Part shown: in pieces, positions 45,597-60,422 of the stretch
How the letters are laid out: each line of letters starts with the position of its first letter
How positions within the stretch are numbered: the first letter of the stretch is position 1
Origin: Escherichia phage vB_EcoM_REC
Length of the DNA stretch: 64,000 nt
Direction: 5' to 3' (one strand)
Sequence record: OM386667.1
Position numbers and translations under genes: made by a program
The notes under the pieces: generated by a model
Database searches by the model: none
What the model was told of the DNA's origin: nothing
Seen by the model: only the letters and a program-made list of their open reading frames with translations

Positions 45597-45875
45597 TTAA
45601 AATGGTTCGTTAGTCTCCATCATATATTCTGCTTCTAGTTCTTCCATATGCTTTCTAAATTGGAAAGCAATTTCTGCTACAGTTACATTTAAATCTTTTT
45701 CAAAAACTTCTGTAGAGCCTTCATAAAAACGAATACCGTCAATTAAAAGCCCTCCGTGGTAATCCCAATCACTTTCACGAGAAAGCGGGTTAGGCTCTTC
45801 ATAATAGTAATCCACCTCCACAACTAAGGCTTTCCCGTTACGAGTGATGTATTCAAAATCAAAAGTGTTAATCAT
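45597..45875 (-). CDS. hypothetical protein
   Basis: 92 aa, start overlaps upstream stop. Confidence 0.4.
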   Translation of the reverse strand: MINTFDFEYITRNGKALVVEVDYYYEEPNPLSRESDWDYHGGLLIDGIRFYEGSTEVFEKDLNVTVAEIAFQFRKHMEELEAEYMMETNEPF

Positions 45876-46819
45876 TATAGCTCCTCAAATAAAAGTCTAC
45901 GACGCTCATTCAACACATCAATGTGATAATGAGTCCTGACATACTTAGCTAATGCTAATCCTTTCTCCATGCAAACATCGGGAGCACTTAATAAGTATTC
46001 CGTAATATCTTTCCACTCGGAAGGTGTTTCAGCAAAGAATAACAAATCTTTAAACTCTTGTGTATGATAATTCTCACGAGGAGAACAGATCAAAGGTAAA
46101 CCCTTAGCACCTGCCTCAAGAATTTTAAGATTGCTTTTTGCATTATTAAACACGTTATCAATCAATGGCGCAAGACTGATTTGATGACCATCGTAAGATT
46201 CCATGTAGTTGGCATATGGTCTTACACCTTCATAAACACAAGTTGGTGCTACATTTTCTCTGATTACAGACCATTCACGACTACTTAAAACTTCAGAATC
46301 CCTACGAAAACCACATATTGTAAGATCTTTACCAAAATCGGGCAAGATAGCCAAATCTTGTTTATGTGTTTCACTTCCAGCCCAGACTAATGGAGTTTTG
46401 GAGTAGCGATCACGGGTCAACACAAATTGACCTTCATCATAAGGAAGTCCATTAGGGATTATGTGCACATTATCATTGTATTGTGAAAGTTCAACTTGCA
46501 AGGCAGGTGTCGTAGTTGTAACAAGATCACTGTGCTCTAAAAACCATTTTAAATGTTCACGAATACCTGATTCAAAAATACCTTCTAACATGTGTCCTTT
46601 TGGAATAACTAAAGAGTCATCCAAATCCATAACCATTTTAAAGCCTAGGTTTTTAAGGGCTAAAAAGCCCTCTTTACCTTTTGTTGGCACTCCGTTAAAA
46701 ACGAAAACGTTGTATTTAGGTTGTGAAGAGAACTGCCTTGAGTAAGGCAGCACTACCCTATGGAAATCGCAGACACTATAATTGATTCCGTTACGATTGT
46801 CAAGAATTATTTGTCCCAT
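45875..46819 (-). CDS. putative glycosyltransferase (GT-B-like), paralog 1
   Basis: 314 aa; C-terminal KILEAGAKGLPLICS motif; clear paralog of the adjacent gene. Confidence 0.4.
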   Translation of the reverse strand: MGQIILDNRNGINYSVCDFHRVVLPYSRQFSSQPKYNVFVFNGVPTKGKEGFLALKNLGFKMVMDLDDSLVIPKGHMLEGIFESGIREHLKWFLEHSDLVTTTTPALQVELSQYNDNVHIIPNGLPYDEGQFVLTRDRYSKTPLVWAGSETHKQDLAILPDFGKDLTICGFRRDSEVLSSREWSVIRENVAPTCVYEGVRPYANYMESYDGHQISLAPLIDNVFNNAKSNLKILEAGAKGLPLICSPRENYHTQEFKDLLFFAETPSEWKDITEYLLSAPDVCMEKGLALAKYVRTHYHIDVLNERRRLLFEEL

Positions 46820-46826
46820 ACTTCAC

Positions 46827-47813
46827 CTACAAACTTTCAATAACCTGGCGTCGCAACTCGTTTGCATCTGCCAGATTATAATGTGTTCGAACATGTTCAG
46901 CCAAGAACAAGCCACGATCTTCCCGATAGTTTGGATTGCGAAGAAGCTTAACAATTTCGTAATGCCATTCTGCTTTATTCTCTGCGTAAGCAACAGCGCG
47001 AGCATCTACAGGGTTAAAATAAGGTAATACCTTAGAACAAACAATCGGAATACCTTTTGCTCCAGCTTCCAGGATTTTGAGATTACTTTTACAATTATTA
47101 AAATCATTGTCTACCAAAGGAGCTATAGCAATAGCATGACTTTCGTAAACACTCATGTAATTATCTAAATCTTTTACAGCAGCTTTATATTTGGCATTTG
47201 GTAAATTTCTGCGAATCTTAATCCACTCTTGTCCCGTGATGCTTTGTGATGCTTCATATCCCGCAATAGTAAGAAGTTCATCATCGAAAGTATTAGAGAC
47301 TAGTCGTAAATCTGGTTCGTGACTAGCACCGCCAGCCCATACAACAGGGGTACCGGATGAACGATCATTTGACAAAGTGAATTGTCCGCTATCAAAAGGA
47401 AGTGCATTTCGGATCACAACGACATTTCTATTTAAGTGACGGATCTTATATGCCAAATATTCTGTAGTCACAATAACCACATCAGCAAGCTTAACCATAG
47501 CTACAATAGCATGAGTGTTTGACTCGTATAGACTTGCTAAATAATGCTCTGGATTAAGTTGGTAAAAATCATCTAAATCTACAACAACCTTAACACCTTG
47601 ACGTTTCAAAGATAAAACGTATTCTGCACCTTTAGAGTGGATACGGTTAAACACAACAATATCTTTCTTAGGTTGAAAATTATTGTTGTTAAATGGCATA
47701 ACAATACGATGATAGTCACAACCGCTATGAGGTTTTGCATCAATTTTTAGTTTAGACCATTTTTTATTTGACATGTGCCAGTGCCTCCTCATAGGAAATT
47801 CGGATTTTCCCAT
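46827..47813 (-). CDS. putative glycosyltransferase (GT-B-like), paralog 2
   Basis: 328 aa; KILEAGAKGIPIVCS; VVWAGGASHEPDL; aligns along its length with 45875-46819. Confidence 0.4.
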   Translation of the reverse strand: MGKSEFPMRRHWHMSNKKWSKLKIDAKPHSGCDYHRIVMPFNNNNFQPKKDIVVFNRIHSKGAEYVLSLKRQGVKVVVDLDDFYQLNPEHYLASLYESNTHAIVAMVKLADVVIVTTEYLAYKIRHLNRNVVVIRNALPFDSGQFTLSNDRSSGTPVVWAGGASHEPDLRLVSNTFDDELLTIAGYEASQSITGQEWIKIRRNLPNAKYKAAVKDLDNYMSVYESHAIAIAPLVDNDFNNCKSNLKILEAGAKGIPIVCSKVLPYFNPVDARAVAYAENKAEWHYEIVKLLRNPNYREDRGLFLAEHVRTHYNLADANELRRQVIESL

Positions 47814-48447
47814 TTTTAATATCCTCTAAAGATGCTTTATATTCTTCCCAGTTAATCCCGATAGCAGCTTCTTTCTCTTCTTTTGTCAGATTAGCAAAAG
47901 GCATAGGGTTGTTTCCAAAAACATCGTCTGGGTGGATATAAGCCATGATACGAAGTGGACAAGGTGTTGCCTGAATACCATGATTCAAACCAGCAGCTTG
48001 CAAACGGTGTCCCCATTCAGCATCTTCAAAACCATAGCCGTGAGTGTAAGGACGGAAATAACCCATCTTCTCAACAACGGCACGAGAATACATTGCAAAT
48101 TGACACATTGCAAGTTCCCAGAGAATAACTTCTCCTTTGCTTCCAACAACTTTATCTTTGAAATACTCCGGCATACCAAAGAAATCCCATCCTCCAGAGA
48201 CAGCTTGATCTACAAAGTATGTTTCCCATCCCTCCATGACTGGGTAGCAATCGTCGTCAAAAATAAACCAATAATCATAACCTTCTTCATAAAACTGGTG
48301 CATAAGTTCATTCCTGGCATAAGCTACACCTTTACGATCTGGATCGTTGAATACTCGAAAATCTGCACGTGGATCTGTTACAAGGTAGTCTTTAAGTGGA
48401 CGGACACCTACAGTGATAACACCCACTCCAATTTTAATATTTTCCAT
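47764..48447 (-). CDS. putative glycosyltransferase (GT-A-like, DxD motif)
   Basis: 227 aa; YWFIFDDDCYP (DxD) and FGMPEYF; Rossmann-like N-terminus. Confidence 0.45.
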   Translation of the reverse strand: MENIKIGVGVITVGVRPLKDYLVTDPRADFRVFNDPDRKGVAYARNELMHQFYEEGYDYWFIFDDDCYPVMEGWETYFVDQAVSGGWDFFGMPEYFKDKVVGSKGEVILWELAMCQFAMYSRAVVEKMGYFRPYTHGYGFEDAEWGHRLQAAGLNHGIQATPCPLRIMAYIHPDDVFGNNPMPFANLTKEEKEAAIGINWEEYKASLEDIKNGKIRISYEEALAHVK

Positions 48448-48455
48448 TTTCTCTC

Positions 48456-49019
48456 CTAAATAGTTTTACTGTGATCATGACAGTGTAATAAATGATGTAT
48501 AGACCGTTGAGGATTTGTTTGACCTAATCTGTAAATGTGAAACAGATACATTCCCCGCATCAATCCTAACCTCTTTCCTTTTTCATGTAAAGTGCGAGAG
48601 AAAATTAAGTCGAATTGGATAGATTTTTCTTCGAAAGGAATTTCATTCCACAATGATTTTCTAAAAAGCAAGAAGAAACCTGCCAGAGGTGTTCCGAAAG
48701 GAACTTCTTCAACACTCACTTTATGATATTCTCTTGCAATCTTAGCATATTCTATATGGTTTAGAATATCTGGATCATCGTTAATTTGGTTAGAGAAAAG
48801 CTGATAACCACTGCCTAACCTGTTACAAGTTGCACCTATTACATCAAAAGGCGGGTTTGACATAACAAGCTCTTCAAGCATAGATGGTTGATCAGGTAGG
48901 AGGAACATTGTATCGGTATCTCTTAAACACACCCAACTATCATCTGGAAGAACGGCAATGGCTTTATTGATAGCCTTGCCGATATTTCCTGTCAGATAGG
49001 GAGTAATATAATAAATCAT
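48456..49019 (-). CDS. putative glycosyltransferase-like protein (GT-A-like)
   Basis: 187 aa; WVCLRDTDTMFL (DxD-like). Confidence 0.35.
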   Translation of the reverse strand: MIYYITPYLTGNIGKAINKAIAVLPDDSWVCLRDTDTMFLLPDQPSMLEELVMSNPPFDVIGATCNRLGSGYQLFSNQINDDPDILNHIEYAKIAREYHKVSVEEVPFGTPLAGFFLLFRKSLWNEIPFEEKSIQFDLIFSRTLHEKGKRLGLMRGMYLFHIYRLGQTNPQRSIHHLLHCHDHSKTI

Positions 49020-49720: not shown

Positions 49721-50242
49721 TTAACTCCCCTTTGGTAGATAGAAACCATGCACTTTATCTCGATAAACAAGACGCATATCACGTTCCCAGTGTGTCCTTA
49801 TATTCCGTTTCTTGAAGTATAGAGCACCTTTAGTAACATCTAAAACAGACCGCAATTCAGGAAAATGTTTCTCTAAATAAAGTAAACGCTCCGCTATTGC
49901 TTTTGCTTCCTGCCACTTATCTTTCTCTGTTACGTTAAAAGTTTTCGCATATGAGAATTGTCCTTTCTGGAACAAGACTCCTCTGACTGTGTTAGGGAAG
50001 TAGGTATCATTTCTTCTGTTGATTACCACATTCCCAACGGCATTCATTCCTTTTTTACCCAGACCGCGACCTTCTGCGTAAATTGCACAAGCTAATAGAA
50101 TTTTATCATTATATTGCTTTGTACATTTGTGAACTACTTTAGCGGTTTTTACGTTTGCAGCTTCGGCTTTCGCCACAACAGGTGTAAATGTAAAAGCAGT
50201 TAAGGATAGTAACGCAACTGTTACAAAGTTTTTTATCAGCAA
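49721..50242 (-). CDS. secreted cell-wall hydrolase (SleB-like domain)
   Basis: 173 aa; N-terminal signal peptide (VALLSLTAFTFTPVVAKA); CAIYAEGRG...GMNAVGNVVINRR resembles the SleB-type hydrolase domain; TTG start with AAGGAGG RBS. Confidence 0.6.
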   Translation of the reverse strand: MLIKNFVTVALLSLTAFTFTPVVAKAEAANVKTAKVVHKCTKQYNDKILLACAIYAEGRGLGKKGMNAVGNVVINRRNDTYFPNTVRGVLFQKGQFSYAKTFNVTEKDKWQEAKAIAERLLYLEKHFPELRSVLDVTKGALYFKKRNIRTHWERDMRLVYRDKVHGFYLPKGS

Positions 50243-50274
50243 ATTTTGCCTCCTTTTTAAGTTAACGAATTTCT

Positions 50275-50303
50275 AGTATAACACGATAGAGGCTTTATTG
50301 CAA
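50275..50303 (-). promoter_or_regulatory. sigma70-like promoter candidate on minus strand (TTGCAA, 17 nt spacer, TATACT)
   Basis: Reverse complement reads TTGCAA...TATACT upstream of the hydrolase gene; overlaps a GC hairpin (50304-50323) downstream of TerD. Confidence 0.4.
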
Positions 50304-50341
50304 GAGGGGGATTTCTCCCCCTCAAAATCATTTGTTAATTA

Positions 50342-50944
50342 TTATGGACATTCATACCATTCTTTTTTACCACCGAAGGCCATCACCACATCACAAATAT
50401 CCAGACCAGCTTTACCTACACCATATGCTTTCAGCTTCCATTCCCCATCTTCACGAACCAAGGAAGCCACGTGGCAGATTGTGTTGCCAGCTACTTCAGG
50501 AGCCAGGAAGTCAAAATCCAGAATTTCCACATTGCGCTCGGAGTCGAAGATTTTAAGCATACCTTCAGAAGCATGACCAAAACGTTTCAGACCTGTATCA
50601 TCATCAATGGTCAGAACAAAGGCAATCTCTTGTGCATCAGGAGAGATTTTAGCCAAAGTAATATCAATCTGCTCCATGCTGCCAGTTCCATCACGAACAT
50701 CGTCACCAGCGAAGGTAGAACGTTCAGGATCAAACTTGTTAGCATAGCAAACCAGATGACGTGCAGACAGCATTTCAGGATTACCAGCGGCATTGTGACG
50801 ACAAACCAGTGCACTTACATCCAGATCCAGTTTAGAATCAGATTTCCAAGAGAATTCCAGGCGCAGTTCTTTCAGAGCCGGAGCAACTTTCTTCAGGGAA
50901 ATTTTTTCGCTAGAGCCTTTTTTCAGGGAAATTTTATCAGTCAT
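50342..50944 (-). CDS. terD: TerD-family stress protein
   Basis: 200 aa; N-terminal ISLKKG...ISLKK; DLDVSALV; calcium-binding-like GDDVRDGTGSMEQ; C-terminal EWKLKAYG; overall pattern matches TerD domain. Confidence 0.8.
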   Translation of the reverse strand: MTDKISLKKGSSEKISLKKVAPALKELRLEFSWKSDSKLDLDVSALVCRHNAAGNPEMLSARHLVCYANKFDPERSTFAGDDVRDGTGSMEQIDITLAKISPDAQEIAFVLTIDDDTGLKRFGHASEGMLKIFDSERNVEILDFDFLAPEVAGNTICHVASLVREDGEWKLKAYGVGKAGLDICDVVMAFGGKKEWYECP

Positions 50945-50959
50945 CTTTTGTCTCCTCTA

Positions 50960-51229
50960 TTATTTAAGTGTAATACCAGTTACAGTCAATTCTACTTCCA
51001 AAAGCTTAGATGTGTTTTGGATTGATACTAATTGTGCATGATGGTTTAGTTCTACAGCAGAATAATCATTTTCCCCATCATCTACTTTTAAATAAACAAT
51101 GATTTCACTAAGGTCTAAACCATTTTCGTCAAATGCATTTTCATAGACGAAAGTATCTCCTACATCCAAATCTTTAATGGTAAGGCATCGTTTATTTACT
51201 TTTTGCTCATCAATTTCGAAGTTTAACAC
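50960..51229 (-). CDS. small hypothetical protein, paralog A (DLDVGxTF...ITLK family)
   Basis: GTG start with AGGAGGAAG RBS; paralogous to 52251-52529. Confidence 0.45.
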   Translation of the reverse strand: MLNFEIDEQKVNKRCLTIKDLDVGDTFVYENAFDENGLDLSEIIVYLKVDDGENDYSAVELNHHAQLVSIQNTSKLLEVELTVTGITLK

Positions 51230-51458
51230 TTCTTCCTCCTAATGTTATCTCCGGTTTGTATATACGAAGAATTATAGCATTTTCATTTTCTTTGTCAACC
51301 CATTCTTCATAATCGGGCCATACATGAATCTCCACTCTACTTACAATATCTTCCATTCGCACAGTCCCAATGAAATACTCTTTGAGACTGCGCATAATGA
51401 AAGCTTCTCTCTCGCGCCAATAATTTTCTATGACTTGAGAGGCAAGCTCGTCGATCAT
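51210..51458 (-). CDS. hypothetical protein
   Basis: 82 aa ORF. Confidence 0.35.
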   Translation of the reverse strand: MIDELASQVIENYWREREAFIMRSLKEYFIGTVRMEDIVSRVEIHVWPDYEEWVDKENENAIILRIYKPEITLGGRSVKLRN

Positions 51459-52249
51459 TTTTTAGCACCTACTTTAACAACCCACTCTCCGAACTCTTCA
51501 GATAAGAGTTTGTCATAAAGCTCTGAATCTGTCAAGTCTAAATCTTTAATGCCAATAAAACCAACATTATCATAAGCATTTGCCAGTTCTTTCAGGAACC
51601 CAAACTTCTCATTACCAACGCCAACCATGAACCAATAAATAGGTTTATTCTTATTCTCTTCAATAAGACGACGAACAGCACTAGGATCACCATTCTCACC
51701 ATCCGTCTGGAAGAATACAACACCAGGGGTAACGTCAGCACCTGGTTCAGATACAGCTACAACTTTTTCACGCTCTACAGACACTGTTTCAGTTTTACCA
51801 AGCAGACGATTAAAGAAGCCTTTCTTTGGAGCCTCCTCTTGTACCACTTGTTTAGTGGTAATATATTTGGTAACAGTGCCAAAATACTCACCGTAGATAT
51901 CTGCCATTACAGGGGCGTAATTTGTTCCACCTCCGATACGAACATTACGCATACATTTACCAACATAGTCATCGTAAACGTCTGCTGTTGCTGGAGTAAG
52001 CTCTTGGGAACTCGTATTGAAGGCCCACATATCAATTTGTTGATTATCGTCGAACAGCATACCAAAAGGAAGCAGTTTACCTACAAAATCACTCACTACC
52101 CCACTAGAATATAGACCATGCATACTACCAGAAATATCTAGAGCACATGCTACACGAAGAACAATCTTACCTTCATTCAGGTTCTTATTCTTTTTCAGAG
52201 AGAAAGCAAGGTTTTCTTGACGTTTTTTCAGGCTGATTTTCTCGGACAT
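51455..52249 (-). CDS. vWA-domain protein (TerF/TerY-like) with TerD-like N-terminal ISLKK motif
   Basis: 264 aa; MIDAS-like motif ALDISGSM; N-terminus MSEKISLKK mirrors TerD N-terminus MTDKISLKK. Confidence 0.65.
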   Translation of the reverse strand: MSEKISLKKRQENLAFSLKKNKNLNEGKIVLRVACALDISGSMHGLYSSGVVSDFVGKLLPFGMLFDDNQQIDMWAFNTSSQELTPATADVYDDYVGKCMRNVRIGGGTNYAPVMADIYGEYFGTVTKYITTKQVVQEEAPKKGFFNRLLGKTETVSVEREKVVAVSEPGADVTPGVVFFQTDGENGDPSAVRRLIEENKNKPIYWFMVGVGNEKFGFLKELANAYDNVGFIGIKDLDLTDSELYDKLLSEEFGEWVVKVGAKK

Positions 52250-52250
52250 A

Positions 52251-52529
52251 TTATTTCTCCTTCTTAAGTGTAATATTGGTAACTTCTAAATCTACTTCCA
52301 CCATATTTGTATCTGGTGGGATGCAATGAGTATAGCCTCGTTGTGCTAGTGATCCATTAATACAAATCGCACTGTTTGTGGAATTTTTAATGAACACCAA
52401 GTTACGGTAGGTATCCAACCCTGCGTCTTCATAGGCATCATAATACATGAATGTTGCCCCTACGTCAAGATCTTCGAAAGCAATAGGTAAATCTTGACTT
52501 TTTTCTTCTTGAATATTGAATCTAAACAC
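52251..52529 (-). CDS. small hypothetical protein, paralog B (DLDVGxTF...ITLK family)
   Basis: ORF 52251-52595 trimmed to the GTG at 52529 (GAGGAGG RBS); from there it aligns with paralog A. Confidence 0.45.
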   Translation of the reverse strand: MFRFNIQEEKSQDLPIAFEDLDVGATFMYYDAYEDAGLDTYRNLVFIKNSTNSAICINGSLAQRGYTHCIPPDTNMVEVDLEVTNITLKKEK

Positions 52530-53085
52530 GCATACCTCCTCTACCAATTTTGAAGCCCAAATCGTAAGCTTCCTTAGTGATCTTTTGTAACTCACTTATA
52601 GGAAGTGTTACAAGAGGATCATCTTCTTCAATTTCCATCTTGTCATCTTCTGTTTCAATGAGAGTATTATGCACTTTGTGATAAGGGTTGTCAACACGTT
52701 TAAACTTATTCTTTTCTGTGCTGAAAAAACAATCTGGATCTTCTTCACCATCACCCCAACCTTGGTTAGGATCTCCGTCAGATTGTTCTGTAGGGATTTC
52801 ACCTGTAAAGTACTCTTCCAGCACCATAGCGATACCGTCCCTTGGATTTGAGGAATGCATCAAATCACAAACCTTACTCCAATCCATAGCCCATTCAAAT
52901 CGTTCACGAACACCATTTTCATCCTCCTTTCCAGAGAAAACACAACCATAACTATCATAGTTCCCATACATCTCTTCAATAACAACACCGTCCTTCAAAA
53001 GAAAGAGGTAGCAAGGTGATCCGTCGAAAGAAGTAGAAAGGGCAGCTTTGCCCGATTCTTTGCACAAAAAGCTAAAACAACCCAT
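52522..53085 (-). CDS. hypothetical acidic protein
   Basis: 187 aa ORF. Confidence 0.4.
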   Translation of the reverse strand: MGCFSFLCKESGKAALSTSFDGSPCYLFLLKDGVVIEEMYGNYDSYGCVFSGKEDENGVRERFEWAMDWSKVCDLMHSSNPRDGIAMVLEEYFTGEIPTEQSDGDPNQGWGDGEEDPDCFFSTEKNKFKRVDNPYHKVHNTLIETEDDKMEIEEDDPLVTLPISELQKITKEAYDLGFKIGRGGMRV

Positions 53086-53649: not shown

Positions 53650-53849
53650 TACTCCTCCTCCTCCTCATTGAAGTCAATATCTGCAAGGAGTTCGAATTTA
53701 CGGAAGTTACGACAACCTTCATAAATATAACAATCACGACAAACTGCTAGAACACTTGGGGGATATATGCCTCCCATCGGTGCGAATCGTTTTTCGTCAT
53801 CATAACGGACACCAATGTCTTCATCAATTATATAGATACGGATTCTCAT
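53649..53849 (-). CDS. small hypothetical protein
   Basis: 66 aa; CRDC...C; ends NEEEEE. Confidence 0.3.
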   Translation of the reverse strand: MRIRIYIIDEDIGVRYDDEKRFAPMGGIYPPSVLAVCRDCYIYEGCRNFRKFELLADIDFNEEEEE

Positions 53850-54958
53850 TTACCAAGCCCTCGTTTCACAGCAGCTACCATCCCGTCTTCCAGAGATTGA
53901 ACTTCATTAATATAATCAACACGAGCAGCACGGGCTTCCGTATTGATGCGGTTAGTTTCTTCCAACATCTTAACCAAGTTTTCCTGATCGTGACGCAGAG
54001 TTTCAATATCCAACACTTGACGGTTAGCCAGTGCTGCTGCTTCGATCTGATTCTGTGTGGCAAGATCGCTACCCAGTTTAATTGCCAGGTTAAATTCATC
54101 AAGAACGTTATTCTGCGTCTCTGCTGCTTTCATTTGACGTAAGCTCTCGATATACATTGAGAAGTTAGCAGAGTAAGCAGGAATAACATTATTTACTATG
54201 TTACGCGCAGATCGCATTAAGCTTGCAGAAACTTTTTGCATACCTTGTACACGCGGTCCCATTTGGACACACAGTAGGCGCAATGCTTTTAAATCTGCAA
54301 TACGAATCTCCAGAAGATCCAAAGTATCTCGGATCACTTGTCGCTGTTCTACTGCATCTTCTGGAAGAGCAGCCAAAGCTTGTTCTTCTTTTTCATAGGT
54401 TGCTGTTAGAAGCTGCATATCTCGGTTCAAACTTGCAGCATATTGTCCAATAGCTTGATGTAGCTTTTCAAGATATACCAAGGAATCTTCTTCTTTGCGA
54501 ATATCCATTTGAAGGTTCTTTACCAACTCTTCAATACGGTTATTAACATTATCAAACTCCCCGAACAGGTCTTCTTTCATACCCATAACTTTTTTAATGA
54601 GTTTAGTAATACCCTTACTTTGTTTAATAGAGTTTGGATCAAGTTGTTTTGCCTGTTTAATCAAAGCTGTGAGTCGTTCACTCATCTGATCGCCTTGATT
54701 ACTACGTTGATGTTTTAACACCTCGGCATTCAAGGAACGCAAGGTTGTTCCTGCCTCTGCCCCAATCTCTTCAATCTCTTGTCGGGTCATAGAAGGCAAA
54801 ACTGGAACTTCTTGCGGTGCCGCTGGTGCATAAACAGGACTGGCATCTAACACGCTTGGAGCGAATACAGATTTACTTGCATCTGTTGTTGCAGCAAATA
54901 CGCTCATTTCAGGCTTCTTCTGACCACCAGTAGCTGCTTTTAAAAATGGACTTGTCAT
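53846..54958 (-). CDS. telA: TelA-like toxic-anion-resistance family protein
   Basis: 370 aa, largely helical; length and composition fit the TelA/KlaA family; sits in a TerD/TerC neighbourhood. Confidence 0.6.
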   Translation of the reverse strand: MTSPFLKAATGGQKKPEMSVFAATTDASKSVFAPSVLDASPVYAPAAPQEVPVLPSMTRQEIEEIGAEAGTTLRSLNAEVLKHQRSNQGDQMSERLTALIKQAKQLDPNSIKQSKGITKLIKKVMGMKEDLFGEFDNVNNRIEELVKNLQMDIRKEEDSLVYLEKLHQAIGQYAASLNRDMQLLTATYEKEEQALAALPEDAVEQRQVIRDTLDLLEIRIADLKALRLLCVQMGPRVQGMQKVSASLMRSARNIVNNVIPAYSANFSMYIESLRQMKAAETQNNVLDEFNLAIKLGSDLATQNQIEAAALANRQVLDIETLRHDQENLVKMLEETNRINTEARAARVDYINEVQSLEDGMVAAVKRGLGK

Positions 54959-55545
54959 TCTTCATTCTCCTCTTCTGCATCTCTTATATATGGTGAAACA
55001 CCGTACTCTTTAGCTACTTTAACCCAATCGTCCCATTTATACAACCATAATTTTCCTTCGGTCCCTTCTTTATCTGATTTCAACCACATATTAGGTTGCT
55101 TACCTGGGTACATGCGATTAGGTTTACGATTATAACCTCTAACACATCTTGTCGCAAACCTATCTACCAGAACAAGAACATATTTATATTCGTGGTTCAA
55201 CGGCTCTTTGGAAGTGGCTTTAGGATTAGCCCCTAATTCTGCTGCCAGTTTTTGCCAATGAGCACCGTGCCTACTAAACTTACCCATACAACCATCAATA
55301 GCATGAGCAATTTCGTGCTTCATTGTATCCACGATCATATCTCTTGTGGAGTTCTTATGCAAGTGCCAATTTACAACAACAATTTTATCTCGGTAGTTGC
55401 ACCAACCGAAAGAGTTATTCACTTTGTTTCTAACACAAGCTTTATATCCTGCTTCACGTAACATGTTGTAGTAAACAGGAAAATCTTCTTTTATTTCCTG
55501 CATCACTTCCCACCACAAGAGTTGCAAGTCTCTCTCGGTATGCAT
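54955..55545 (-). CDS. SprT-like zinc metalloprotease domain protein
   Basis: 196 aa; HEIAHAIDG (HExxH) then SRHGAHWQKLAAELG, typical of SprT-like domain. Confidence 0.6.
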   Translation of the reverse strand: MHTERDLQLLWWEVMQEIKEDFPVYYNMLREAGYKACVRNKVNNSFGWCNYRDKIVVVNWHLHKNSTRDMIVDTMKHEIAHAIDGCMGKFSRHGAHWQKLAAELGANPKATSKEPLNHEYKYVLVLVDRFATRCVRGYNRKPNRMYPGKQPNMWLKSDKEGTEGKLWLYKWDDWVKVAKEYGVSPYIRDAEEENEE

Positions 55546-57146: not shown

Positions 57147-57164
57147 AGCCTCCCGAAGGAGGCT
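57147..57164 (-). terminator. stem-loop/terminator downstream of TerC gene
   Basis: Stem AGCCTCC/GGAGGCT, loop CGAA. Confidence 0.45.
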
Positions 57165-57170
57165 CATTTA

Positions 57171-58145
57171 TTAAACAGTAGCTTCTTCTTTTTCAGGGAA
57201 GATAAAGCTTGCAATAACACCAAGAGCTAATGTGCCCAGGACAATATACATACTAATAGTTGGATCAATGTGCGCTGGCAGGAAGCTCATTTTTTCATGT
57301 AACGTTTCTGCAAACGGGTGATACATTAGTTTAACACCTACAAACACCAGAACCACAATAACTGCTTTCTCCAAGTGAACCAGATACTTCAGTGCAACAC
57401 TAAGAACAAAGAACAGAGCACGTAGACCTAAGATTGCACATAACATCGAAGAGAATACAAGCAGAGGTTCTTGTGTTACTGCGATCACTGCCGGAACAGA
57501 ATCTACTGCAAAGATTACATCAACCATTTCCATCACGAATACGCAAACCAAAGCTGGAGTTGCTACACGAACACCATTTTCGATTGTGAAGAACTTCTCC
57601 CCATCCATTTTATTAGATACAGGGAACAGTTTACGAACAATACGGGTAGCCCAGTGTTTAGAGTAATCAACTTCTGCGTCATTATTTCCAGCAAATACCA
57701 TTTTAGCTGCACAGAAAAGGATGACCGCACCGAAGAAGATATTAACATACCAGCCCAAACTTAACAAGTAAGTGCCTACTGCTACAAACACACCTCGGAA
57801 GACAATCGCACCTGCAATACCCCAAAGTAGAATCTTGTGCTGCAAGTGTGTGCTTTTAATACCAAAACTTGCGAATACTGCTACAAATACTACCAAGTTA
57901 TCTACCGACAAAGATTTTTCCAACACATATCCACTTAAAAACAAGTTAGCAAAATCGGCACCATGTTGGAAGTATACAAAACCATAATAAGCTAATGATA
58001 CACCAATCCAAAAGATCGACCAACCAACTGCGGATTTGAATGAAATTTCTTTATTTTCTTTGTGACCAAAGAAATCAATACCAATAGACAATGCTAAAAT
58101 ACCAACTAAAACAACTACATCAATAATTGGGAAACCAAGTTGCAT
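57171..58145 (-). CDS. terC: TerC-family integral membrane protein
   Basis: 324 aa, multiple hydrophobic helices; LEKSLSVDNLVVFVAVF matches the TerC signature. Confidence 0.8.
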   Translation of the reverse strand: MQLGFPIIDVVVLVGILALSIGIDFFGHKENKEISFKSAVGWSIFWIGVSLAYYGFVYFQHGADFANLFLSGYVLEKSLSVDNLVVFVAVFASFGIKSTHLQHKILLWGIAGAIVFRGVFVAVGTYLLSLGWYVNIFFGAVILFCAAKMVFAGNNDAEVDYSKHWATRIVRKLFPVSNKMDGEKFFTIENGVRVATPALVCVFVMEMVDVIFAVDSVPAVIAVTQEPLLVFSSMLCAILGLRALFFVLSVALKYLVHLEKAVIVVLVFVGVKLMYHPFAETLHEKMSFLPAHIDPTISMYIVLGTLALGVIASFIFPEKEEATV

Positions 58146-58458: not shown

Positions 58459-58932
58459 TTAAAGTTTATAAATAGTCACATCGTGACCTGTTTTTACTAA
58501 AGTTTCTTCAATCATCACTTGGATGATAGCCCAATTACCTCCAGCATATCCAGCGCCAATCATAGGTAAGCCGATCTTACATTTTTGGTCACGGAGAAGC
58601 AAATCGTTAGCCATAGCTATTAGTGCATCGTAAAGTGCATCATAGTCCAACTGACGACCTTTAGCATTGTATCCGTAACGGTATTGCCCGTATAGATTAT
58701 ATACCAAAGGGTCTGATTGTTCGTCTGGCACCCCTAAACTAAAACAACCTAGTTTACTTTGATCACCAGCCGTTGTGTCTAAGTCTGCTGCATATGCGTA
58801 AGGAAATGCTTGTTTGATTTGTGGGGCAATACCTGCCCCCATATTACACATACAGTTGCAACAATGAGCAATAACAGTTACTTCACCTGCTTTAGCGGCA
58901 TCAATAAGATTACCTGTTTTCATTTTAAGCAT
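58459..58932 (-). CDS. macro-domain protein (ADP-ribose binding/processing)
   Basis: ORF 58459-59037 trimmed to the ATG at 58932 (GGAG RBS after PRTase stop); VTVIAHCCNCMCNMGAGIA and GLPMIGAGYAGGNW fit macro-domain motifs. Confidence 0.6.
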   Translation of the reverse strand: MLKMKTGNLIDAAKAGEVTVIAHCCNCMCNMGAGIAPQIKQAFPYAYAADLDTTAGDQSKLGCFSLGVPDEQSDPLVYNLYGQYRYGYNAKGRQLDYDALYDALIAMANDLLLRDQKCKIGLPMIGAGYAGGNWAIIQVMIEETLVKTGHDVTIYKL

Positions 58933-58945
58933 TTTTAGCTCCTTA

Positions 58946-59773
58946 TTACAGAATGTGTTGTTTTGTGTAACGATCCAAGAATTCAAAGTTTTCAGCATAC
59001 TTTGAAATTCGGTTGTAACCTTCTCCCAAGCATCCAAAGAAAAGTTGCTCTACATAGTAATGTGGCAATTGGCTAAGAATGATTTTGAAGTCTTCATGAT
59101 TTTGGCCCATAAGATACTTAATAGGACGAACAAGACACTGTGCATCACGTTCTTCACTAATCATTTTAACAAACGCTTCTGGTGTATTAATGTAGTTAAA
59201 ATTCAGTTTAGCTTCGGTATCTGCTTGATTACCTTCGTATTTTGCAAAATACAAGAAGTAAACATCATTTTTAACTTGATTTTCATCAAGGATCTCAATC
59301 AGTTTGTCTTCATGCGTTCCAGTGATATTTACATCATCAATGAATACAAGCTTCTTATCACCCCAGAATTCTTTGTTGCAGTAGAATGTATCACCATCAA
59401 TAAGTTTCTTACGACTAGCTTTATCCAAGAAACCATAATCGTTGATATAGCTAACTTTACGATGAATAATGTCCAGTTCTGCTGAACGACCTTGATCATA
59501 TTGTGATTGCAACATATTAAAATAATTAATAAAATGATCTGTCATCATTGTTGCAGCATTATGCACATGGTTATAAGGAGAAGGAATGATAACAAATTGT
59601 TCCCCAATATGTTTCATTGCCACTTGAGCAAAAAACTGAAGTGCCAATTCTTTACCCATACGACGCGCAGCTTGGTTACTACCAAATTTCAATTTTGAAT
59701 AATCTTGGATATCAAAAGTAGCAGTTTCCAGGTCATCAAATTTATTTGCAAAAATTTGAGTTTGATTACGCAT
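58946..59773 (-). CDS. phosphoribosyltransferase-like protein
   Basis: 275 aa; KKLVFIDDVNITGTHEDK resembles the PRPP-binding motif of type I PRTases. Confidence 0.6.
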   Translation of the reverse strand: MRNQTQIFANKFDDLETATFDIQDYSKLKFGSNQAARRMGKELALQFFAQVAMKHIGEQFVIIPSPYNHVHNAATMMTDHFINYFNMLQSQYDQGRSAELDIIHRKVSYINDYGFLDKASRKKLIDGDTFYCNKEFWGDKKLVFIDDVNITGTHEDKLIEILDENQVKNDVYFLYFAKYEGNQADTEAKLNFNYINTPEAFVKMISEERDAQCLVRPIKYLMGQNHEDFKIILSQLPHYYVEQLFFGCLGEGYNRISKYAENFEFLDRYTKQHIL

Positions 59774-60422
59774 TTACAATTTCTCCTCTTTTAAGTTTCT
59801 CTAGTAAGTCGTTAGGGTTCTTAATATGACAGAAGTTAAATCCTAAGTCAACACATTTTCCATCATATTCTTCACTATCGCCTACGTGCAACACTTCGTG
59901 CCCTAACAGAGGGATCGGAGAATACGTGAGCGTGCGAGCAAAGAATCGCGGATCTGGTTTACAAAGTAAAGCTTCATCCGAGAAATGGGTGAACTCAAAA
60001 CAATTCCAACTATCAAACTTACAAGCACGACGCAGGATATCCCCTGATATGAAGTTGGTATTGCTCTTAATACTCAAATCATAACGCCCCGAAAGATACA
60101 GCAAGTACATCGGCAGATCCACGGCTACGTGTGGTGGAAACTTAAGGAACCACTGTTCACACTCGAAACGAAGCTTTGCAGACTTCCAAGGCGTTATCCC
60201 AAGTTCAGAACCAAGTCTTTCCCAGGCGTATGCTGCACACTCGGCTTTGCCTTGAAGTGCTGCATTATCCAGTTCCTTTTTGATCTTCTTATAAGCTGCT
60301 CTTGCTTCCACTTCCGTAATATCTCCATATTTTGCGATAGTCCAGGCTCGCATGTCTGCGTAATTGGAGTTTGCTGTGATCAGTGTGTTCCATACATCAA
60401 AAGAGATATGTTTAATAGTCAT
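59766..60422 (-). CDS. HAD-superfamily hydrolase/phosphatase
   Basis: 218 aa; motif I FDVWNTL, KPDP, and LHVGDSEEYD (motif III-like). Confidence 0.6.
   Translation of the reverse strand: MTIKHISFDVWNTLITANSNYADMRAWTIAKYGDITEVEARAAYKKIKKELDNAALQGKAECAAYAWERLGSELGITPWKSAKLRFECEQWFLKFPPHVAVDLPMYLLYLSGRYDLSIKSNTNFISGDILRRACKFDSWNCFEFTHFSDEALLCKPDPRFFARTLTYSPIPLLGHEVLHVGDSEEYDGKCVDLGFNFCHIKNPNDLLEKLKRGEIVNA

Follow-up and report, generated by a model that had tools for sequence, protein, structure and literature searches.

A phage-borne Ter module with a duplicated small accessory gene in Escherichia phage vB_EcoM_REC

Ter/TelA gene clusters have long been linked to tellurite, colicin and phage resistance, while the joint working of their proteins is unclear. 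Here we describe such genes in Escherichia phage vB_EcoM_REC (sequence record OM386667.1), of which a stretch of 64,000 nucleotides (nt), referred to below as the window, was analysed. In this phage a TerD-domain protein and a TerF-type vWA protein are each preceded by a gene for a small acidic protein of about 90 amino acids (aa), called B in front of vWA and A in front of TerD. A preliminary description of this DNA saw here an ancestral pair, partner plus effector, that had been duplicated in tandem. Our comparisons indicate that the small gene alone exists twice and that the effector genes are not duplicated; the small protein is a candidate adaptor of the TerD/vWA pair.

Two related small genes, each ahead of an effector gene

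Every gene treated here lies on the minus strand. In transcription order, the part of the locus that matters most consists of the following open reading frames (ORFs) and one promoter:

52522-53085, minus strand: acidic ORF of 187 aa (PHROG 14928); its stop overlaps the start of small gene B by 8 nt
52251-52529, minus strand: small protein B, 92 aa, GTG start, isoelectric point (pI) 4.4, directly 5' of vWA
51455-52249, minus strand: vWA-TerF-like protein, 264 aa, with the motif DISGS of a metal ion-dependent adhesion site (MIDAS); PF10138 at 4.1e-37; 62 homologues
51210-51458, minus strand: ORF of 82 aa (PHROG 22387) between vWA and small gene A, overlapping both
51271-51298, minus strand: sigma-70 consensus promoter TTGACA-16-TATAAT with TG before the -10 element, inside the 82-aa ORF and about 42 nt 5' of the start of small gene A
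50960-51229, minus strand: small protein A, 89 aa, GTG start, pI 4.3, paralogue of B, directly 5' of TerD
50342-50944, minus strand: TerD-domain protein, 200 aa; PF02342 at 3.2e-28, PDB entry 2KXT at 1.5e-15

Over 50200-52800 the DNA matches Escherichia phage vB_EcoM_ESCO37 at 100% identity and 34 phAPEC8-like phages at 99% or more, and the window belongs to the phAPEC8-like Phapecoctavirus (Stephanstirmvirinae). The genes are tightly packed: the 187-aa ORF overlaps B by 8 nt, vWA overlaps the 82-aa ORF by 4 nt and the latter overlaps A by 20 nt, while gaps of 1 nt and 15 nt separate B from vWA and A from TerD. The proteins with an ISLKK-type N-terminus thus do follow the small genes directly, as first described. 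A small gene stands before each effector; the 82-aa ORF between vWA and A, however, means that the layout is not strictly tandem. This ORF is confined to genomes with an A copy and is absent from phage phi92 and Klebsiella phage 05F01, while the 187-aa ORF is the upstream neighbour of B also in phi92 and in phage PsgM04F. No relationship exists between the 82-aa and 187-aa ORFs, and the duplication therefore does not extend to a larger block.

Some of the relatives deserve a remark on their origin. Sequences deposited as Acinetobacter phage ABPW7 and Campylobacter phage B15 are at least 99% identical to E. coli Phapecoctavirus in this region, and Pseudomonas phage PsgM04F is close to E. coli phage phiWec179. 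The host labels of these phages (GenBank records OP562383, MG065650 and OR584014) look doubtful.

That A and B are paralogues, as was proposed, is borne out by pairwise alignment (34% identity end to end, E=2e-14) and by full-length matches of both to PHROG 11278 (7e-45 for A and 4.2e-51 for B); searching the window with a hidden Markov model of the family yields A and B and no further copy. The assigned GTG starts with strong ribosome-binding sites hold as well. In both genes AGGAGG lies 6 nt upstream of the GTG, the homologous start codon is ATG in the orthologues of phiWec179, PsgM04F and Klebsiella phage 05F01, and the GenBank annotation uses the same starts. A check of the ORFs of the window found no longer ATG-initiated frame for either gene: A has an in-frame stop three codons 5' of its GTG, and the sole possible extension of B begins at another GTG inside the 187-aa gene and is without internal ATG.

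Copy B is translationally coupled to vWA. B-type proteins end in KKEK, whose codons, AAGAAGGAGAAA at 52251-52262 (minus strand), serve at the same time as the ribosome-binding site of the vWA gene; this tail is missing from A-type and 'between-only' members of the family. Against the close relative WPEC6, the ratio of nonsynonymous to synonymous substitution rates (dN/dS) is 0.36 for B, which is under purifying selection, 0.10 for vWA and 0.02 for TerD; for A this pair of genomes contains too few changes. Both copies are intact in at least 64 genomes.

Copy A, together with TerD, probably forms a transcription unit of its own. The promoter inside the 82-aa ORF is the sole 12/12 match in the window, where 0.07 would be expected by chance, and it recurs at the equivalent position in phiWec179 and PsgM04F, two phages with A proteins only about 45% identical to that of the window. 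We also noticed an 11/12 promoter-like site, TTGACA-17-CATAAT, at 52666-52694 (minus strand) inside the 187-aa ORF, 137 nt 5' of B.

The small proteins match no Pfam or PADLOC entry. Residues conserved in the family are F4, G24, F27 and G37-L38-D39, among which there are no obvious catalytic ones, and every member is acidic (pI 4.3-5.4). An AlphaFold2 model built from an alignment of 17 sequences predicts an acidic SH3-like beta-barrel (an alignment of seven sequences gave a predicted local distance difference test score of 47 and was set aside). In Foldseek searches of this model nothing in the PDB reached E<1, SH3-like barrels scoring low, and the top viral structural match was paralogue A of phAPEC8. 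Within our phage collection the family is limited to 126 Stephanstirmvirinae-type records, while a vWA-TerF-like gene occurs in 213. When a profile of the family was run against 1.8 billion representatives, some 16 short proteins proved to be genuine members, and about 10 divergent members of about 88 aa were added to the family. Long He_PIG, DUF11 and ankyrin repeat proteins, which also came up, were rejected as summed matches to short motifs, since the repeat families are mutually unrelated. Apart from these spurious matches the search contained only proteins of about 90 aa, and no bacterial members.

Role and origin of the small gene

Every family member with a readable context adjoins vWA and/or TerD (about 10 distinct contexts). 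In phi92 (Justusliebigvirus) and Klebsiella phage 05F01 there is one small gene, followed by vWA and directly after it TerD; five divergent metagenomic phages (L011-L016) have the order vWA-small-TerD or its visible part; phiWec179 and PsgM04F carry both copies with the 82-aa ORF, as the window does. The small gene thus lies on differing sides of vWA among lineages and is always adjacent to vWA and/or TerD, and these three arrangements of one triad show that it stays adjacent despite the change of position. In addition, the small proteins are acidic, as opposed to the basic N-terminal segments of TerD and vWA (charge +3.5 and +4.5). A binding or adaptor role is what we would infer most economically from these properties, and the small protein is probably an accessory binder. 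In such a scheme the vWA/TerD pair would be served by the small barrel, acting as an adaptor that binds proteins or as an assembly factor, and after duplication the two copies would have specialised, each for one partner and within one transcription unit. The reading we favour, with about even confidence, is that the locus holds the TerD/vWA core of a phage Ter stress/superinfection module, accompanied by a lineage-restricted, duplicated accessory gene that is a candidate adaptor.

Several observations weigh against this reading. The small family is absent from 87 of the 213 phage records with a vWA-TerF-like gene and is therefore dispensable for the core function; a vWA/TerD pair without it is found also in the comparison loci L007-L009. 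In L007 (4653-4985) and L008 (5744-6094) an unrelated gene, PHROG 4658, fills the same two slots, standing upstream of vWA in one phage and between vWA and TerD in the other (27% mutual identity, E=5e-10). Since these slots accept unrelated small genes, they may merely tolerate insertions; PHROG 4658 is frequent among the T4-like phages of Klebsiella, Enterobacter and Cronobacter. Profile comparison (HHalign) of the family with the positional analogues in L007-L009, Pyxpy01, Aci313 and CcrPW found no relationship, the top probability, 2.9%, belonging to a nearby 87-aa ORF of L007. All carriers also have a synteny in common, TelA...vWA...TerD with a cell-wall hydrolase zero to three genes later, so the adjacency is partly inherited. 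Finally, the vWA leaders described below are alike in phages with and without the small protein.

These points can be drawn together into a different explanation, namely that the small genes are fast-evolving filler (moron) genes without a functional tie to Ter, whose adjacency follows from shared ancestry and permissive slots. The spread of PHROG 4658 and the many vWA/TerD phages without the small family speak for it, as do the relaxed dN/dS of B compared with TerD and vWA (0.36 versus 0.02-0.1) and the lack of bacterial members. It accounts less well for the fact that all of the roughly 10 distinct contexts adjoin vWA and/or TerD although the gene has switched vWA sides, with no member found elsewhere; for the coupling through the B tail; and for the retention of both paralogues across lineages whose A copies are merely 45% identical. 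We regard it as unlikely, but as a competitor to be taken seriously. If the small protein is a filler gene, what has been gained is no more than a better annotation for a coliphage genus that is common. As handles on the working of the Ter proteins the locus offers this small protein, which is specific to its lineage and constantly accompanies the vWA/TerD pair, and the natural experiment of its duplication, with one copy per partner.

It is more difficult to say how the second copy arose; it came by duplication or by a second acquisition, with or beside the 82-aa ORF. A neighbour-joining tree of the family contains a B-type clade that includes the phi92-like proteins (91% support), an A-type clade (58%) and a 'between-only' clade (76%). 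A and B are 34-38% identical, while B shares 64% identity with phi92 gp174, so the A/B split is older than that between Phapecoctavirus and Justusliebigvirus, and the paralogy is ancient, in agreement with the preliminary description. The two copies diverge at similar rates (window versus phiWec179: 45% identity for A and 52% for B). Either A and the 82-aa ORF disappeared from the phi92-like phages, or A came in from outside. The latter possibility, in which copy A, the 82-aa ORF and the promoter came by recombination from a vWA-small-TerD relative instead of arising by duplication in situ, is suggested by an A clade that is not nested in the Phapecoctavirus B clade, by the closeness of B to phi92 gp174 rather than to A, by vWA-small-TerD being the commonest order outside Stephanstirmvirinae and by the promoter that the inserted block brings along. 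Yet A does not group with the 'between-only' clade (node support being modest, 58-76%), loss of A and the 82-aa ORF in Justusliebigvirus explains the same pattern, and candidate donor-type loci have no counterpart of the 82-aa ORF. Import therefore seems to us a possible, though somewhat doubtful, origin of copy A.

The shared N-terminal motif of TerD and vWA

The TerD protein matches PF02342 over residues 5-179 of 200 (3.2e-28) as well as the solved structures 2KXT (1.5e-15) and 3IBZ (2.9e-14), while the vWA protein scores 128.7 bits against PF10138 (gathering cut-off 29.4), with DISGS at residues 38-42. Their N-termini, MTDKISLKK in TerD and MSEKISLKK in vWA, are the start of two longer segments:

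50888-50944, minus strand: TerD N-terminal double motif, MTDKISLKKGSSEKISLKK; strands beta1-beta2 of the TerD fold
52190-52249, minus strand: vWA leader, MSEKISLKKRQENLAFSLKK; basic double h-x-L-x-K motif before the vWA domain

For TerD the motif represents the first strands of the fold, because ISLKKGSSEKISLKK aligns with VSLSKGG--NVSLSK, residues 3-15 of the solved TerD structures 2KXT and 3IBZ. In the vWA family it is a common leader: at least two h-x-L-x-K units, a criterion derived in this analysis in place of a curated definition, precede the MIDAS site in 61 of the 62 vWA-TerF-like homologues, the window protein included. Homologues with the leader have two to three such units within the roughly 35 residues before the MIDAS DxSGS. 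They include bacterial proteins (e.g. of Neobacillus) and TerD-vWA fusions, and in the fusions P0066-P0069 the units lie between the two domains. A Pfam scan of the isolated N-terminal peptides gave no TerD match, the peptide of TerD itself likewise being without score. To judge from these alignments, the common M-x-x-K-I-S-L-K-K start is the native first strand of TerD on one side and the native vWA-TerF leader on the other, not a product of duplication. A peculiarity of the phage TerD concerns the Ca2+-loop position (about residues 79-93), which reads GDDVRDGTGSMEQ (aligned as GDD-VRDGTGSMEQ) versus GDN.TGEGDGDDE in 2KXT/3IBZ; several acidic residues are replaced, and metal binding may be altered.

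The two native motifs do not vary independently. Across the window and the loci L003-L027, the vWA leader of a genome has a first h-x-L-x-K unit similar to the opening strand of its cognate TerD, as in these examples:

Window: vWA KISLKK, TerD KISLKK
L012: vWA KVSLKK, TerD KVSLKK
L009: vWA KLNLQK, TerD KLNLEK
Acinetobacter phage 313: vWA LQFDLVK, TerD LQFDLCK
Caulobacter CcrPW: vWA SDVINLAK, TerD SDTINLSK
Rhizobium TM21B: vWA LDLTK, TerD LDLNK

Pseudomonas phages have the two units in swapped order. In a permutation test on 11 lineage representatives, with identities counted over six residues and the fixed Lys excluded, cognate pairs had 39 identities versus 21.8 ± 3.4 for shuffled ones (p <= 5e-5). 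The effect is present when only distant lineages (p = 0.0003) or only the enterobacterial-type clade (p = 0.017) are taken, and it is independent of the small protein. The motif Ser codon is AGC/AGT in vWA and TCC in TerD in the window, phi92, phiWec179, L007 and L015. These differing codons indicate that the two 5' ends are old, separate lineages; in the lineage of the window the identity is thus kept at the protein level, and recent gene conversion is no explanation there. Gene conversion may lie behind the matching N-termini in some other lineages, for example L009, where vWA and TerD share 12 identical nucleotides.

A shared partner or direct pairing of TerD and vWA hairpins is an obvious hypothesis for this co-variation, since a motif that co-evolves between TerD and TerF-type vWA across distant phages points to direct or shared contact. 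One could go further and suppose that the TerD hairpin and the vWA leader form a matched interaction pair, through hairpin exchange or a common receptor, and that the small protein is the receptor or chaperone, with one copy per client. The matched pair would explain the co-variation in Acinetobacter, Caulobacter, Rhizobium, Pseudomonas and enterobacterial phages alike, as well as the protein identity despite different Ser codons; the receptor or chaperone part would be limited to Stephanstirmvirinae-like phages, where the small protein would act on the basic hairpin. We consider the combined proposal speculative and rather improbable. If it is true, a Ter system would for the first time be given a concrete physical wiring. 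The co-evolving N-terminal motif of TerD and TerF-type vWA is the most valuable lead of this analysis.

The least tenable explanation is the one proposed at first, that a cassette of small partner and ISLKK-type effector was duplicated in tandem, after which the TerD fold persisted in one effector while a vWA domain was added to the other. At first glance the alignment of the N-termini agrees with it, 7/9 residues being identical, and so does DNA similarity that spans the two places where a small gene meets its effector gene (77% over 39 nt and 76% over 37 nt, about 1300 nt apart). The protein similarity, however, ends after 9-20 residues (BLASTP E 0.01-0.1), and outside the motif TerD and vWA are not alike. 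We rejected the DNA repeats as a sign of a duplicated junction, as phi92 TerD shares the same 5' codons with no small gene upstream of it; the repeats exist because the paralogue C-terminus, the ribosome-binding site and the motif codons are conserved. Mirrored TerD/vWA N-termini also occur in phages without the small family. With a motif native to both protein families, in bacteria and fusions too, with Ser codon classes that differ in five genomes and with single-copy arrangements known for both positions of the small gene, a duplicated cassette is very improbable. What remains of the preliminary description is the ancient paralogy of the small genes, their tight linkage to TerD and vWA, of which they are plausible partners, and the GTG starts; the small protein may also be a regulator or chaperone, as was suggested there.

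The surrounding module and known Ter systems

The remaining genes of the neighbourhood are, again in transcription order:

59766-60422, minus strand: HAD-like ORF, 5' of PRTase_3; weak PF00702 match (4e-4), under the Pfam cut-off
58946-59773, minus strand: PRTase_3 (ComF-like phosphoribosyltransferase), a Ter-associated enzyme; PF15610 at 9.6e-42
58459-58932, minus strand: Macro-like ORF, 3' of PRTase_3; Macro match under the Pfam cut-off
57171-58145, minus strand: TerC-family membrane protein; PF03741 at 9.5e-39
54955-55545, minus strand: SprT-like protein
53846-54958, minus strand: TelA-family protein; PF05816 at 3.2e-33; several small ORFs and then the 187-aa ORF lie downstream
49721-50242, minus strand: SleB-type cell-wall hydrolase, downstream of TerD

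With TerC, TelA, TerD, vWA, PRTase and HAD-like genes on one strand between 50342 and 60422, the locus is a fairly complete phage-borne Ter module. Two further features were noticed around it. A GC-rich hairpin, AGCCTCC-TTCG-GGAGGCT, at 57147-57164 lies directly 3' of TerC and is terminator-like whichever strand is read. Next to the endolysin and the Ter block, on their downstream side, four predicted glycosyltransferase genes stand in a row (45875-49019, minus strand), in agreement with the annotation of vB_Ec-G1 and phi92.

Some Ter loci elsewhere carry genes of a different kind. On a Neobacillus vireti contig (L017, 5404-9928) TerD-vWA-TerC is followed by PRPP-synthetase-like and NAMPT/NAPRTase genes, in an element that is prophage-like (integrase, DndB, phage Rep-O), and a NAMPT gene and a macro-domain gene also lie close to the Ter genes in Pseudomonas phages Pyxpy01 and PPSC2. 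There are hints here of a link between Ter and the metabolism of nicotinamide adenine dinucleotide (NAD) or ADP-ribose. It should be noted that the GenBank product names of PPSC2 (L023, MF893340) are apparently shifted by one gene; for instance, a 270-nt ORF bears the name 'TerC family protein', and the gene that occupies the TerC position is called 'general stress protein 16U'.

The Ter stress-response system (terZABCDEF/telA) was reportedly delineated by Anantharaman, Iyer and Aravind in 2012. The window contains the same set, TerC, TelA, TerD, a TerF-type vWA, PRTase_3 and a HAD-like protein; in addition it has the protein of about 90 aa, duplicated, with one copy before vWA and one before TerD. 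None of eight locus proteins matched PADLOC-DB models (e.g. those of TerY-P) at E<=0.001, and a literature search returned nothing specific on the vWA-TerF leader or on the Ter genes of Phapecoctavirus. For phages, Ter modules with TerD, TerC, TerF-vWA and TelA have been reported before, with proposed roles in superinfection exclusion or in membrane or xenobiotic stress (Iyer et al. 2021, PMC7824862; PMC8386662); the accessible parts of these papers do not name an SH3-like protein of about 90 aa as a Ter component.

As modelled, the small protein itself resembles SH3-like modules such as the ribosomal L2 C-domain, FeoA, the SH3-like domain of DtxR/IdeR, KOW/EF-P, Tudor and HspQ at the level of fold only. 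It has no sequence relationship to SH3-like binding modules, and the resemblance does not amount to family membership. A closer comparison is offered by TerF, a TerD domain with a C-terminal vWA domain. The phage vWA protein belongs to the same PF10138 subfamily, and the leader that begins it is found between the two domains in the fusions. In the phage, by contrast, TerD and vWA are separate genes with two extra ORFs between them, and the TerF fusion proteins are without a small-barrel partner. Seen in this way, the phage has a variant form of the known Ter module of phages, marked by an accessory protein that is duplicated, uncharacterised and predicted to be an SH3-like barrel.

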